The translations under genes were made by a program, and so were the position numbers. Positions 33,294 through 50,174 of a stretch of 64,000 bases of DNA are shown in pieces; the stretch's first letter is position 1; every line of letters begins with the position of its first letter. Source of the stretch: Hyphomicrobium sp. (GTDB lineage Bacteria > Pseudomonadota > Alphaproteobacteria > Rhizobiales > Hyphomicrobiaceae); the NCBI GenBank assembly GCA_041940525.1, contig JBGTSB010000003.1:6916-70915 (forward strand). Reading direction: 5' to 3'. The notes under the pieces are model-generated. The model saw nothing but the letters and a program-made list of their open reading frames with translations. It was not told where the DNA came from and searched no databases.

Positions 33294-33501
33294 CAGCTCG
33301 GTGCCTGCGATGACCCTAGCTGAGCCTGCCGTGATCTTGCTGCTTGTCGCCGGCTACATCGCACTGGTCGCAGGCGTGCTCGCCGGAACTTGGCTGCACT
33401 TCATGCCGCAGTGAAGGCTGCAATGCCGGACTAACCTCTAAGAGCGTAAGTCATCGAAGGCAGGCGTTGTCAGGCGGCTCGCACGGTCTGCGACGCGCTC
33501 A

Positions 33502-33801: not shown

Positions 33802-34105
33802 GAGCCCCTCCGAAATTTGAACGATGCCAAGCCGAAACGCTAGTCGAGCCCACGCCCCCCGACAATGGACTTGAGCCCGCCGAACGAGCGTTTGCGCCGC
33901 GACGCCCGAAAACCGTACCGCAATTGCCACGCTGGGCGGGGGTGGGGCCGGGAGGTGGGTGGATCACTGTACGGGTCGCGATCACGTTCATCGTGAGCCC
34001 ACCCTCACTCACTGTGAGTGTTGGGCCTGACGCAGAACAATAGATAGGGCTCAGCGCCCATATGAGCTTGCCTGTCGGAATATCGCCACCGGCGATAATT
34101 TATTG

Positions 34106-34133
34106 TTGCCAGCGATACAGCGAATCATACATT
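34106..34133 (+). promoter_or_regulatory. Candidate sigma70-like promoter for the RT module and its leader
   Basis: TTGCCA (34106-34111), 16-nt spacer, TACATT (34128-34133), in the AT-rich part of the 566-nt divergent intergenic region. Called by eye only. Confidence 0.2.
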
Positions 34134-34144
34134 TAGATCAACAT

Positions 34145-34300
34145 CGTTTGGAAGACATGCGGATAGTCGTAGTCAGCTGGGACGACATGTCCTGTTGTGG
34201 TGAAGAAGGGCACCCCAAAACACAATCCGCCGTCGCAGGCCAGGGCCGCCGCGCCCGCCCGCGACGCGCGGGCGCGGTATGATGTTCAAGGTTCCAACCG
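34145..34300 (+). ncRNA. Speculative retron msr-msd ncRNA candidate in the leader of the RT module
   Basis: CGTTTGGAA (34145-34153) pairs with TTCCAACCG (34292-34300) in 8 of 9 positions, and G34154 sits at the junction. Inside are the hairpin 34154-34191 and a 10-bp GC hairpin, CCGCGCCCGC (34249-34258) with GCGGGCGCGG (34268-34277). No long perfect a1/a2 repeat was found. Confidence 0.2.
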
Positions 34301-34367
34301 TCGTTTTTCCGATCCCCAAAGTTCGCGACGACTCGCAATGACGTGGGTTGCTTTGAGGGAGACTAAC

Positions 34368-34478
34368 ATGTCGGAAAGACCAAGCGACAAACGGCGGGCG
34401 CGTCCAGGATACAAGCTTCTCTGGAAATTGATCATTTTGATCGCGAGGATGCTTGCATGGATCTTCGATCTAATCTGA
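34368..34478 (+). CDS. 36-aa single-TM peptide, first ORF of the RT module (hypothetical)
   Basis: SD GAGGGAG lies 6-7 nt upstream of ATG 34368. The product is MSERPSDKRRARPGYKLLWKLIILIARMLAWIFDLI, with a basic N-terminus and one hydrophobic helix. The upstream part of ORF 34197-34478 is Arg-rich and looks non-coding. Confidence 0.4.
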   Translation: MSERPSDKRRARPGYKLLWKLIILIARMLAWIFDLI

Positions 34479-34825
34479 CGGCGCGCACCTTGTCATCTGA
34501 GCAAATTGGGAGGCTGCAAGTGCTAAATGAGAGCTTGAAGATTCTCCGGCTGTATCTCGGGCTGACCCAGTCGCAGTTGGCGAAGGATCTCGGCATATCT
34601 CAATCATATGTTTCGGAAATTGAACGCGGCGAAAAAGATGTCACGCTAGATCTTTTGCAAAAGTACAGCGACAAGCTTGAGGTGCCTTTGTCATCACTGA
34701 TCTTTTTTGCAGAGAATCTTGATGGAGTTCCGCCCAAATCTCAGCGACGGATCTTTATTGCTGAGAAGGTCCTTAAGCTCCTTAAACACATGGCTCCCGG
34801 AGATGCAGAAGAAAACAAAAACTGA
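34457..34825 (+). CDS. XRE (Cro/C1) family helix-turn-helix protein
   Basis: LKILRLYLGLTQSQLAKDLGISQSYVSEIERGEKDVTLDLLQKYSDKL is a canonical HTH_3 motif. An alternative in-frame GTG start at 34520 has a stronger SD (GGGAGG, 34508-34513). The stop lies 10 nt before the RT start. Confidence 0.8.
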   Translation: MDLRSNLTARTLSSEQIGRLQVLNESLKILRLYLGLTQSQLAKDLGISQSYVSEIERGEKDVTLDLLQKYSDKLEVPLSSLIFFAENLDGVPPKSQRRIFIAEKVLKLLKHMAPGDAEENKN

Positions 34826-34835
34826 GATCTATCCT

Positions 34836-35825
34836 ATGACTCGGTCGCCACTTTTCCAGCTCCCAACCCGCAGGCGGCTTGCTCAGCTATTGGGCTTCAA
34901 ACTATCAACATTAGAAAAGCTCATAGAGTCTCGCGAACAGAACTACTGGTATAAGGAAGAGCTTATTGCCAACAAAGTGAGAAAGATCGCTCGCCCCTTC
35001 GGAGCAATGGACAAGACCCACGCCATTCTCGCCAACCTTTTGAATAGGGTAGAACAGCCCAATTGGCTCAGTTCGCCCAGGCGCAATATGACGACCGTCC
35101 GCAACGCTGCTAAGCACCTGGGCGCGGCAAGACTGACGTCACTCGATATCAAAAAGTTCTATCCGTCCACCACAGATGAACATGTTTTCAAGCTGTTTCA
35201 TTTTGGCTTTGAGATGCCCGATGACGTGGCTGGTATGCTGACCAAGCTGGTCACAGTTCATGCCCGTGTTCCGTTTGGGTCGCCACTGAGCCCAATTCTC
35301 TGCGCGATCGTTCATCGTGAGCTGTTTGATGAGGTTGAGCAACTGTGCATCACTCACGATGCCATCGCGACCGTCTGGGTTGATGATGTCGTAGTCTCAG
35401 GCTCAGACATATCCGACAAGTTAGAGTTTCAAATTAAAGGCGCGATCAAAAAGCGCCAGTTGAACTATCACAAAGTTCACCGCCGACGTGCCAAACGTGG
35501 GTTAGTGGTGACGGGTGTGCATGTGTCGGCGAACGGATTGGCGCCAGCCAATAAGCTTCACAAAAAGATGCGAGATGGCATGGTTGAGCTGAACAATGCA
35601 TCATCCTCTGATGACAAGTTGCGCCTATTACGCTCGCTAATTGGACTCAATGTGCACATGGCTAGCATATACGATGAAGGTGACGCTCGGAAGCAGAGAC
35701 TCCTGAAGCAGCGGCAGTGGCTACACAATGAACGGCGCAGGACCGAGCGCCTGCTTGAAAAATGCCCAAGTCCAGAAAATTGCGAAGCGCGTCACGCGCT
35801 AGTTTCACAGAGACCACCCTTCTAG
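34836..35825 (+). CDS. Retron-type reverse transcriptase (329 aa)
   Basis: RT motifs are present: NAAKH (35103-35117) directly before LDIKKFYPS, VPFGSPLSPILCAI, the WVDD catalytic box (35376-35387), and RGLVVTGVHV with VTG at 35508-35516. The layout is collinear with my recollection of Ec86 RT. G+C is lower than in the flanking genes. Confidence 0.85.
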   Translation: MTRSPLFQLPTRRRLAQLLGFKLSTLEKLIESREQNYWYKEELIANKVRKIARPFGAMDKTHAILANLLNRVEQPNWLSSPRRNMTTVRNAAKHLGAARLTSLDIKKFYPSTTDEHVFKLFHFGFEMPDDVAGMLTKLVTVHARVPFGSPLSPILCAIVHRELFDEVEQLCITHDAIATVWVDDVVVSGSDISDKLEFQIKGAIKKRQLNYHKVHRRRAKRGLVVTGVHVSANGLAPANKLHKKMRDGMVELNNASSSDDKLRLLRSLIGLNVHMASIYDEGDARKQRLLKQRQWLHNERRRTERLLEKCPSPENCEARHALVSQRPPF

Positions 35826-35938
35826 TGTGATGTTAGATTTTGGCTGGTGCTCCCCACGCCCTTGCATCCCGCACCGGCCTTGCCACATGATCGGCCATCA
35901 CCGCACACCCACGCGCGGCAAGCAGCAAAGGCGGGTCA

Positions 35939-38048: not shown

Positions 38049-38424
38049 CACAATACCTCGCTTGAACTTTTCTAGGACCGGCGGACGAACACATGATCCT
38101 AACTCTGGGTATGACTCTGGAGTCTTAAAACGGCGTTTTAAGACAAGCGCCGGCGCGTACCATCGTCGCAGCCAACACCCTACAACGTCATTCAACACAG
38201 TAAGTTTTCGTAAATGTGGAAGATGACGGGATTTTCTTCGTAAACATTGCGCACACTGTTCAATCTCCCACGCTCCTGGATACGAATCCTGACAACGGTG
38301 AGAGACGGCGGCCAAAGTTTCCGTATACGTCTATTTTTGCAGGTGGCTGGTCGAACCTGCAAAACGAACAAACCATAGCAATATCAATGCTTGACGCGGG
38401 CGAGTTCAATCCTAAGGATGTATA

Positions 38425-38443
38425 AGGATCACTTAGTGATCCT
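38425..38443. promoter_or_regulatory. Perfect 9-bp-arm palindrome upstream of the IS630-like fragment
   Basis: AGGATCACT T AGTGATCCT lies 30 nt upstream of ATG 38473. It is preceded by the direct repeat TAAGGAT (38413-38419 and 38422-38428). It could be an operator or a relic of a terminal inverted repeat. Confidence 0.3.
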
Positions 38444-38472
38444 ATCAGATCATCTAATCCAAGAGTGCCCTC

Positions 38473-39027
38473 ATGCCCGCACCGATTGAGCTGAGGCGGG
38501 ACTACACCGCCCAGCAGTTGCGCGACTATGCAGCAGCCATTGAAGACGAATCCCACGCCAGACGCTTGCTGGCGATCGCAGCGATCCTAGAAGGTCGAAG
38601 TCGGACAAGAGCCGCCGAGATCGGTGGAATGGAACGCCAGACGCTCCGCGATTGGGTTCATCGCTTCAACGAGTCTGGCCCAGACGGCCTAAAAAGCATG
38701 CGCTCTCCCGGCCGCCCGCCCAAGCTTGACGACAAGCAGCGCAAACAACTGGCGCACCTGATCGGCAGCAAGCACGCGCCGGAGTTGAACCCCCGCTGGC
38801 GCCTGGCCGATGTTGCGCGGCTTGTGCGTGATGAGTTCGGAGTGGACCTGGACGAGGTCAGCGTCGGCCGTTTGATGCGCAGCTTTGGGTACACCTATAC
38901 CGGCACGCGCTGGAGCAAAGACGACAGCGCAGACGACGACGGCGGAGATGGACCTAGTTTGAGCTTAATAATTGCGAGCTTTTCGCGCGCGGCCGCCATG
39001 CCTGTGGCGCACATGACGACCTGCTAA
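38473..39027 (+). pseudogene. IS630-family transposase N-terminal (HTH) fragment lacking the DDE domain
   Basis: ARRLLAIAAILEGRSRTRAAEIGGMERQTLRDWVHRFNESGPDGLKSMRSPGRPPKLDDKQRKQL...RWRLADVARLVRDEFGVDLDEVSVGRLMRSFGY matches the N-terminal DNA-binding half of IS630-type transposases. The sequence then degenerates and stops, with no DDE region downstream. Confidence 0.6.
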
Positions 39028-50098: not shown

Positions 50099-50174
50099 TG
50101 GTGCCGCTTGCGTGACTTGAACACGCGACCCCCGCATTACGAATGCGGTGCTCTACCAGCTGAGCTAAAGCGGC
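50099..50174 (-). tRNA. tRNA-Thr (anticodon CGU)
   Basis: The reverse complement reads GCCGCTT-TA-GCTC-AGCTGGTA-GAGC-A-CCGCA-TTCGTAA-TGCGG-GGGTC-GCGTG-TTCAAGT-CACGC-AAGCGGC-A-CCA. This is a complete 76-nt cloverleaf with an encoded CCA. Confidence 0.95.

Follow-up and report, generated by a model that had tools for sequence, protein, structure and literature searches.

The 64,000-nucleotide stretch of Hyphomicrobium sp. DNA that we analyzed (assembly GCA_041940525.1, contig JBGTSB010000003.1, positions 6,916 to 70,915; referred to here as the window) contains a putative retron built around three consecutive open reading frames (ORFs): a 36-aa ORF at 34368-34478 that follows the Shine-Dalgarno (SD) sequence GAGGGAG (34355-34361), an ORF for an XRE-type helix-turn-helix (HTH) protein, listed at 34457-34825, and a reverse transcriptase (RT) ORF, listed at 34836-35825. 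The original prediction, made from these letters, had taken the group for a retron-like module and guessed at Type VI. Its three ORFs and its motif coordinates (NAAKH at 35103-35117, WVDD at 35376-35387, and VTG at 35508-35516) proved exact on re-reading. With the gene models given below, the order of parts is a palindrome with a promoter, a structured noncoding RNA, a small protein (SP) of 36 aa, the HTH protein of 101 aa, and the RT of 340 aa. The locus is very likely an intact Type VI retron, that is, an anti-phage module of the abortive-infection type, and it occupies an exchangeable cassette of 1.9 kb. Earlier work has already described the architecture and the general mechanism of such retrons, and the features that had been thought distinctive are typical of the window's clade.

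The assignment is carried by profile searches. Among the PADLOC profiles, the RT matched RT_VI at 8.1e-65 (217 bits, profile positions 1 to 272 of 279), with RT_III-A second at 9.1e-34 (115 bits), and the HTH protein matched HTH_VI at 1.5e-31; these scores establish that the Type VI guess was correct. The corresponding Pfam matches were RVT_1 (7.9e-11) for the RT and HTH_3 (1.4e-15) for the HTH protein. In a PDB sequence search, which returned no Type VI retron structure, the nearest solved structure to the RT was the Ec86 RT (2e-10, residues 49 to 204 of the 340-aa RT), and the nearest solved relatives of the HTH protein were C.BclI and HipB, both operator-binding dimers. Mestre et al. 2020 (PMC7736814) define Type VI by an RT of clade 3 whose partner is a Cro/C1 HTH protein (91 to 110 aa, cluster 2_1) encoded upstream of or overlapping the RT gene, and they already noted a small accessory protein upstream of the HTH. 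The window has the NAxxH (region X) and VTG (region Y) signatures of the retron RT lineage, as NAAKH and VTG, together with a 101-aa HTH protein whose gene overlaps that of the RT by 23 nt and an SD-preceded 36-aa ORF that completes the SP-HTH-RT order. A structured hybrid RNA (hyRNA) with a sequestered SP ribosome binding site and flanking inverted repeats, a further hallmark of the type, was found computationally.

Two preprints now describe Type VI retrons experimentally, so the original prediction's remark that their mechanism is poorly understood is now out of date. In Retron-Vpa2 (Zhang et al., bioRxiv 10.1101/2025.10.22.683967), the SP is a toxin, phage-induced multicopy single-stranded DNA (msDNA) derepresses SP translation, and a conserved 7-nt direct repeat connects an msd loop with a riboregulator loop. 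Retron-Sen3 (García-Rodríguez et al. 2026, bioRxiv 10.64898/2026.04.27.721009) follows a constitutive, post-translational SP/HTH toxin-antitoxin logic that is triggered by RecBCD inhibition; in this retron, paired IR1 and IR2 flank the SP gene, and ~280 nt upstream of the SP there is an 18-nt "5'-conserved stem-loop" without which the system does not work. The SP-HTH-RT order and a hybrid RNA that embeds the SP gene are described in both, and in both RT catalysis is needed for defense.

Two gene starts differ from the listed ORFs. The HTH gene most likely starts at GTG 34520, where the HTH_VI profile match begins and where the closest relatives have their start codon (ATG-TTG-AAT-GA at the position of the window's GTG-CTA-AAT-GAG). 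The sequence GGGAGG at 34508-34513 provides an SD for this start. A start at ATG 34457, which would give the longer ORF, is less likely, and with GTG 34520 as the start there is no overlap between the SP and HTH genes. For the RT, ATG 34803 (MQKKTKTEIYP...) is the most likely start, because all RT homologs in our alignment carry ~11 further N-terminal residues with a conserved E.YP, and the window encodes this segment in frame. The RT gene would then run into the 3' end of the HTH gene, an overlap also seen in relatives, instead of starting 10 nt after it as had been proposed. RT residue numbers used below (H94, W181, D183, D184, T226, and G227) count from the 34836 start.

Table 1. Features of the retron locus, in window coordinates
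Feature	Position	Strand	Description and basis
Left 18-nt imperfect direct repeat	33913..33930	+	CCGTACCGCAATTGCCAC; conserved flank, 5 nt from left breakpoint; family D7
Low-GC cassette with whole retron	33936..35853	.	1.9 kb; from flank comparison with TARA scaffold L038
Palindrome	34081..34097	.	TATCGCC-ACC-GGCGATA; candidate HTH operator, or "5'-conserved stem-loop" RNA element
Predicted sigma-70-type promoter	34106..34133	+	-35 TTGCCA 34106-34111, 16-nt spacer, -10 TACATT 34128-34133; consensus scan
Third GCGATA half-site	34112-34117		Within promoter spacer
Predicted hyRNA	34140..34519	+	msr-msd-like domain (~34140-34367), embedded SP coding sequence, and 3' clamp
Stem-loop SL-A	34179..34193	+	GGGAC-GACAT-GTCCT; helix 1, 98.8% paired, one compensatory pair (GC to AU)
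Stem-loop SL-B	34195..34218	+	Helix 2; changes on both sides in 7/8 pairs
Stem-loop SL-C, candidate msd hairpin	34249..34277	+	GC-rich; inverted repeat I14; helix 3, 96% paired, GC to AU covariation
Direct repeat DR1	34260-34266	+	CGCGACG; apex of SL-C
Inverted repeat IR1, 5' arm of long-range helix	34281..34303	+	GATGTTCAAGGT 34281-34292 and CCGTCG 34298-34303; helices 4 and 5
SP riboregulator	34314..34359	+	Anti-SD 34314-34322 pairs with SD side 34350-34359
Direct repeat DR2	34324-34330	+	CGCGACG; internal loop of riboregulator
SL-D inner hairpin	34330-34349	+	Within riboregulator
SP	34368..34478	+	36-aa small protein, predicted toxic effector; MSERPSDKRRARPGYKLLWKLIILIARMLAWIFDLI
Inverted repeat IR2, 3' arm of long-range helix	34476..34497	+	TGACGG 34476-34481 (contains SP stop codon) and CACCTTGTCATC 34486-34497
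HTH_VI	34520..34825	+	Cro/C1 (XRE)-type HTH, 101 aa from GTG 34520; PADLOC, Pfam, and relatives' starts
Type VI retron RT	34803..35825	+	340 aa from ATG 34803; PADLOC RT_VI, 37-homolog alignment
Right 18-nt direct repeat	35869..35886	+	CCGCACCGGCCTTGCCAC; conserved flank, 15 nt from right breakpoint

The original prediction had also named recurrence of the peptide-HTH-RT arrangement among homologs as a check, and the arrangement does recur. A genome scan yielded 29 related loci, and the HTH gene was detectable in 24 of them; of the remaining loci, one (L028) has an HTH protein too divergent to detect, and the others are truncated or degraded. Across the 25 loci formed by the window's own and these 24, the SP-HTH-RT order was kept without exception, as it was in four closer metagenomic relatives that share the same 36-codon SP, and synteny with the HTH and SP genes is conserved across phyla. 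Every one of the 25 has, upstream of the HTH gene, an SD-preceded small ORF of 36 to 68 aa with a polybasic N terminus (net charge of +4 to +11) and a hydrophobic helix; the L028 locus, scanned besides, carries such an ORF as well. Two loci depart from the common form. In a distant Type VI relative on the Neopusillimonas aromaticivorans chromosome (L032, 2650-3948), the HTH and RT sequences are fused in a single 432-aa ORF, a Rosetta-stone-type hint that the two proteins may associate physically, although an assembly frameshift is possible. In Shimia abyssi (L026, ~2550-3100), a decayed copy consists of ncRNA-like sequence and a frameshifted RT N terminus, with no HTH or SP detectable.

Synteny of this kind, and the fusion in L032, argue against the idea that the RT belongs to another class (group II intron, diversity-generating retroelement [DGR], or Abi/UG/DRT) and that its HTH and peptide neighbors are coincidental. 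The similarity that could be cited for this idea consists of weak tails, 13.3 bits to NCBIfam Drt3a and 12.5 bits to the group II intron RT family TIGR04416, far below the respective cut-offs of 200 and 300 bits and set against 217 bits over the full RT_VI profile. In addition, no intron RNA domains, DGR repeats, or Rfam matches were found. We rejected a nonretron class on these scores and regard it as exceedingly improbable.

The SP has no family match in the profile searches, but several lines of evidence indicate that it is a protein. Within the subclade, relatives that share ~72% nucleotide identity all have an SP of 36 codons, and the ratio of nonsynonymous to synonymous polymorphism (pN/pS) is 0.33 to 0.52. 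The original description of a peptide with a strong SD and one transmembrane helix holds for the SD. The helix, in contrast, is hydrophobic with a stripe of polar residues spaced by heptads (K20/R27/D34; <H> 0.61, muH 0.50) and looks like an amphipathic helix of a membrane-active or oligomerizing kind, and not like a plain transmembrane segment. One could argue that the 36-aa ORF is untranslated and that the region is purely noncoding retron RNA, given that the ORF is very short, lacks a database family, and overlaps conserved RNA structure. An SD-preceded ORF of the same architecture in 25/25 loci, the fixed codon number and pN/pS, the conserved heptad stripe, and the proven toxicity of the homologous element in Vpa2 and Sen3 make this very improbable. 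By analogy with those two retrons, the SP is probably the toxin, which agrees with the earlier expectation that the effector had to be the small peptide or the HTH module. Because published SP-HTH-RT operons describe the SP as the effector, what had appeared to be an extra peptide is a canonical component. At 36 aa, it falls outside the 75 to 79 aa of the named SP clusters (cl2075, cl2760, cl3272, and cl3897), a length that fits the "Large" lineage with its unclustered SPs.

We next consider the RT and its unusual catalytic box. A protein search returned 52 RT relatives, the closest of them metagenomic and 55 to 59% identical; an identical RT is present in the metagenome-assembled genome GCA_041940865.1. 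In an alignment of 37 sequences, H94 of NAxxH and T226-G227 of VTG were invariant and A91 was present in ≥90%, in line with the proposed retron signatures. W181 was likewise present in ≥90%, while V182, D183, and D184 were invariant. Across 33 loci, WVDD occurred in every alphaproteobacterial relative examined and marks a mainly alphaproteobacterial clade, and YVDD occurred in more distant Type VI relatives from Anaerolineae, Acidobacteriota, and Gamma- and Betaproteobacteria. A literature search found no paper that names WVDD together with reverse transcriptase. The published Type VI tree includes, within the "Large" lineage, both Vpa2 and a sub-cluster from Thioclava, Cereibacter, Marinosulfonomonas, Rhizobium, Sphingopyxis, and Sphingobium; the window's clade has therefore very probably been sampled already, as judged from host taxonomy. 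Consequently, the suggestion of a distinct variant marked by its peptide, WVDD box, and host is not borne out: the SP is canonical, WVDD is clade-wide, and an alphaproteobacterial sub-cluster has been published. A separate feature of these RTs is a conserved Pro-Trp or Pro-Phe at the C terminus, which follows a variable linker in nearly all homologs (35817-35822 in the window); this tail, unmentioned in the Vpa2 and Sen3 papers, could be a docking site for a partner.

The Trp in place of Tyr raises the question of whether the RT is catalytically dead or noncanonical and serves as a scaffold beside a plain SP/HTH toxin-antitoxin pair. Such an arrangement would be in keeping with the Sen3 HTH-SP pair, which works independently of the RT and the ncRNA, and with a published census in which six Type VI retrons yielded no detectable msDNA. 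Yet W181 persists in a clade that diverges to 31% identity, the rest of the box is invariant, and the other RT motifs are kept, which indicates selection on the active site. Since RT catalysis is required for defense in both characterized Type VI retrons, and the template-like hairpin SL-C is conserved with covariation (Table 1), we consider a dead RT improbable.

The RNA elements come from a 16-locus DNA alignment (MAFFT) analyzed with RNAalifold. The RNA domain is conserved across 16 to 21 loci. In the consensus structure, 93.7% of cells were paired, compared to 39 to 51% in slid controls, and 21 pairs showed compensatory changes, a number that none of 500 shuffles reached. In the core of the IR1-IR2 helix, which encloses the SP riboregulator and the coding sequence, six of the seven pairs were compensatory across loci. 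Because MAFFT misaligned the window's own arms, we read them straight from the sequence (CAAGGT/ACCTTG, GATG/CATC, and CCGTCG/TGACGG). This helix matches the IR1-IR2 or a1-a2-like pairing published for Type VI hyRNAs. In per-locus folds, the SD was paired with an upstream anti-SD in 25/25 cases, with compensation in the flanks (for example, GCUCUC/GAGAGC versus GCACUC/GAGUGC). RNAalifold on the riboregulator segment recovered the inner hairpin alone because the anti-SD register shifts between loci. In the window, DR1 and DR2 share the 7-mer without a mismatch, and in the closest relatives both copies read GCGAG, a parallel change from GCGAC; these repeats are suggestive of a Vpa2-type switch. 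We take SL-C as the candidate msd hairpin by analogy with the Vpa2 account of a repeat in an msd loop. A search by eye for a classical a1/a2 pair with a branching G gave none to annotate, and Rfam at permissive thresholds matched no retron or other RNA family. A closing helix (P1) around SL-A and SL-B, plausible in sphingomonad loci, was inconsistent in the window's subclade and was not annotated.

Upstream of the RNA domain, the consensus scan found a single promoter-like site, TTGCCA-16-TACATT, from which transcription would start at ~34140. In the closest relatives, the -35 region GTTG..C and the GCGAT that follows it are invariant, with TAnAC-like -10 boxes 17 nt downstream. The predicted -35 box is abutted by the palindrome, which is unique in the 64-kb window (0.11 matches expected) and recurs at an equivalent position across 19 loci, where its arms reach up to 13 to 15 bp; the distant YVDD loci have TTCGC/GCGAA palindromes 280 to 345 nt upstream of the SP. 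A·C mismatches, which an RNA stem would not tolerate, occur in the palindrome in 4/16 loci. Given the abutting promoter, the conserved position, these mismatches, and the operator-binding dimers among the HTH protein's solved relatives, we tentatively propose that the palindrome is an operator for an autoregulating HTH dimer and that the published "5'-conserved stem-loop" would then act in transcriptional control and not as RNA structure. We hold this to be possible rather than probable, and as the palindrome lies at the place of the essential element of the Sen3 lineage, the RNA reading is a plausible alternative. If the proposal is true, control of Type VI retrons would gain a third layer, at the level of transcription.

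By analogy with Vpa2 and Sen3, one transcript, the hyRNA, would carry both the reverse-transcription template and the SP message. The RT and HTH proteins would bind this RNA, the SP would be the toxin, and the HTH protein would restrain the system, possibly also as a dimer that autoregulates the operon at the palindrome next to the promoter. Phage recombination or anti-RecBCD functions would serve as the trigger, upon which the SP would arrest the infected cell. For the step in between, the two preprints offer different routes. In a Vpa2-type route, triggering would lead to the accumulation of RT-made msDNA copied from SL-C; through its complement of DR1 (CGCGACG), this msDNA would pair with DR2 in the riboregulator loop, the anti-SD/SD helix would open, and the SP would be translated. 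In a Sen3-type route, the SP and an RT-dependent single-stranded DNA would be made constitutively, the HTH protein, as an antitoxin, would neutralize the SP post-translationally, loss of RecBCD activity in the course of infection would free the toxin, and the RNA would only organize the complex.

Sen3-type control has been demonstrated for Retron-Sen3 (bioRxiv 10.64898/2026.04.27.721009), and parts of the window would suit it: the palindrome, ~289 nt upstream of the SP, lies where that lineage has the "5'-conserved stem-loop" required for its defense, the IR1-IR2 clamp is also a feature of cl2075, and the HTH protein resembles HipB-type antitoxins. On the other hand, the window's SP is without the N-terminal extension of ~25 residues and the long amphipathic C-terminal helix with which Sen3-type SPs contact the HTH protein, the taxonomy of the hosts favors the "Large" lineage, that of Vpa2, over cl2075, and a sequestered SD with a DR1/DR2 repeat fits translational control. 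Sen3-type control of this locus is thus a credible alternative, though one to which we give the smaller share of belief. Between the two routes, the choice is close to even, and we lean slightly toward the Vpa2 type.

Several observations weigh against this overall reading of the locus. SD sequestration exceeded the shuffle control only modestly (0.83 versus 0.62), and the DR1/DR2 match rose above positional controls in only 9/20 loci. Folded by itself, the window's hyRNA showed no significant gain in stability over shuffles (z = -1.5), and the structural claims therefore rest on the comparative data. An alignment-free IR1-IR2 duplex test gave a mean z of -0.8, swamped by the GC-rich background. 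The msr/msd boundaries and the priming G are not assignable from the data, and our literature search found no characterized precedent for Trp in an RT catalytic box. The "Large"-lineage placement comes from host taxonomy and not from a tree that includes the window's RT. Finally, extrapolation to the window's clade is uncertain because the two characterized Type VI retrons use different control logic.

The boundaries of the cassette were defined by comparison with TARA scaffolds, which we reached via a member of the MoeB 90%-identity cluster. On one of them (L038), from a sister strain, the flanks match the window at 95 to 97% identity as far as 33935 and from 35854 onward, and an unrelated, equally low-GC cassette of 2,136 bp (2780-4915 of the scaffold) stands in place of window positions 33936-35853. 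The retron is therefore one of at least two alternative cargoes at this site. The retron cassette has a GC content of 0.52 compared to 0.60 in the flanks and appears in a scan of the window as a trough of 0.47 to 0.53 against 0.60 to 0.66. The 496-aa protein encoded by the other cassette weakly matched the PADLOC candidate PDC-M36A (8.9e-8) and matched no Pfam profile; precomputed labels (DUF8370/DUF8371) exist for it. As first described, the neighboring genes are moeB (a ThiF/MoeB-family gene) and a secreted-protein gene (a small gene with a signal-peptide-like N terminus), and the site between them looks like a hot spot for defense cassettes. The copies of the 18-nt direct repeat beyond the two breakpoints (Table 1) are identical at 14/18 positions and may be a recombination site or a product of chance.

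Some further features lie in the neighborhood. An IS630-like transposase pair (HTH_23/28/29/32/33 domains at 38473-39027, followed by a 186-aa ORF) lies 2.6 kb downstream of the retron, with a GC dip at 38050-38500; the pair is also present in the sister strain and is therefore not part of the cassette. A 64-nt segment of the window (33307-33370) is absent from an otherwise 97%-identical TARA scaffold. In some relatives (L027, ~1495-1590, and L006, ~1717-1830), the retron palindrome is immediately preceded by tRNA-like sequence (GGTTCGAATCC...), which suggests that the cassette inserted next to a tRNA there; the only tRNA in the window, a tRNA-Thr at 50099-50174, is far from the retron.

None of these findings overturns the current understanding of Type VI retrons. 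They add a compact and complete example from a mostly alphaproteobacterial WVDD clade to a type whose mechanism has only recently been established, in two examples from Gammaproteobacteria. Comparison among loci provides unusually clean covariation for a long-range helix that clamps a toxin gene, a defense-essential element receives an alternative reading as DNA operator versus RNA stem-loop, and the different cassette that a sister strain carries at this very chromosomal site points to a defense hot spot. If the operator proposal is true, the WVDD clade, with its 36-aa toxin and ~380-nt hyRNA, could offer the most compact model system for Type VI.

Of the known systems, Retron-Eco1 (Ec86, Type II-A3) shares with the window the retron RT fold and the NAxxH and VTG motifs. 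Unlike the window, it has a nucleoside deoxyribosyltransferase-like effector that is not embedded in the ncRNA and no HTH partner, and it makes abundant msDNA that serves as an antitoxin. The HTH protein aligns to regulators of the C.BclI, HipB, and C.Esp1396I type. XRE/HipB-type antitoxins and the C proteins of restriction-modification systems act as dimers on palindromic operators at their own promoters, and the window has a palindrome at the retron promoter, where its HTH_VI protein may bind DNA, as we propose by this analogy. Unlike those regulators, the retron HTH protein also binds the RT and the hyRNA according to published work.

Closer still are the two Type VI retrons. Sen3 (cl2075 lineage, Salmonella enterica) has the same SP-HTH-RT architecture, an HTH gene that partly overlaps the RT gene, and, ~280 nt upstream of the SP start, a short palindrome or stem-loop that is conserved. 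Its SP, however, is 79 aa long with an N-terminal extension and a long amphipathic helix, and its ncRNA has an SL3 of ~166 nt, compared to ~29 nt for the window's candidate template hairpin. IR1-IR2 covariation is clear in the window's clade (6/7 pairs) and not significant in cl2075, and the window's palindrome, next to a predicted -35 box, looks more like a DNA operator. Vpa2 ("Large" lineage, Vibrio parahaemolyticus) differs from the window in the size of its SP (55 versus 36 aa), in its catalytic box (YADD versus WVDD), and in the length of its hyRNA (~470 versus ~380 nt); the window's relatives are alphaproteobacterial and marine, and the DR1/DR2 match is not universal among them. The likeness to Vpa2, drawn from sequence alone, lies in the ncRNA-SP-HTH-RT order, an SP gene inside a structured hybrid RNA, a sequestered SP ribosome binding site, inverted repeats that join the 3' end to the msr-msd arm, a possible counterpart of the short direct repeat common to the template hairpin and the riboregulator loop, an SP with a hydrophobic C-terminal helix, and probably the same broad RT lineage.

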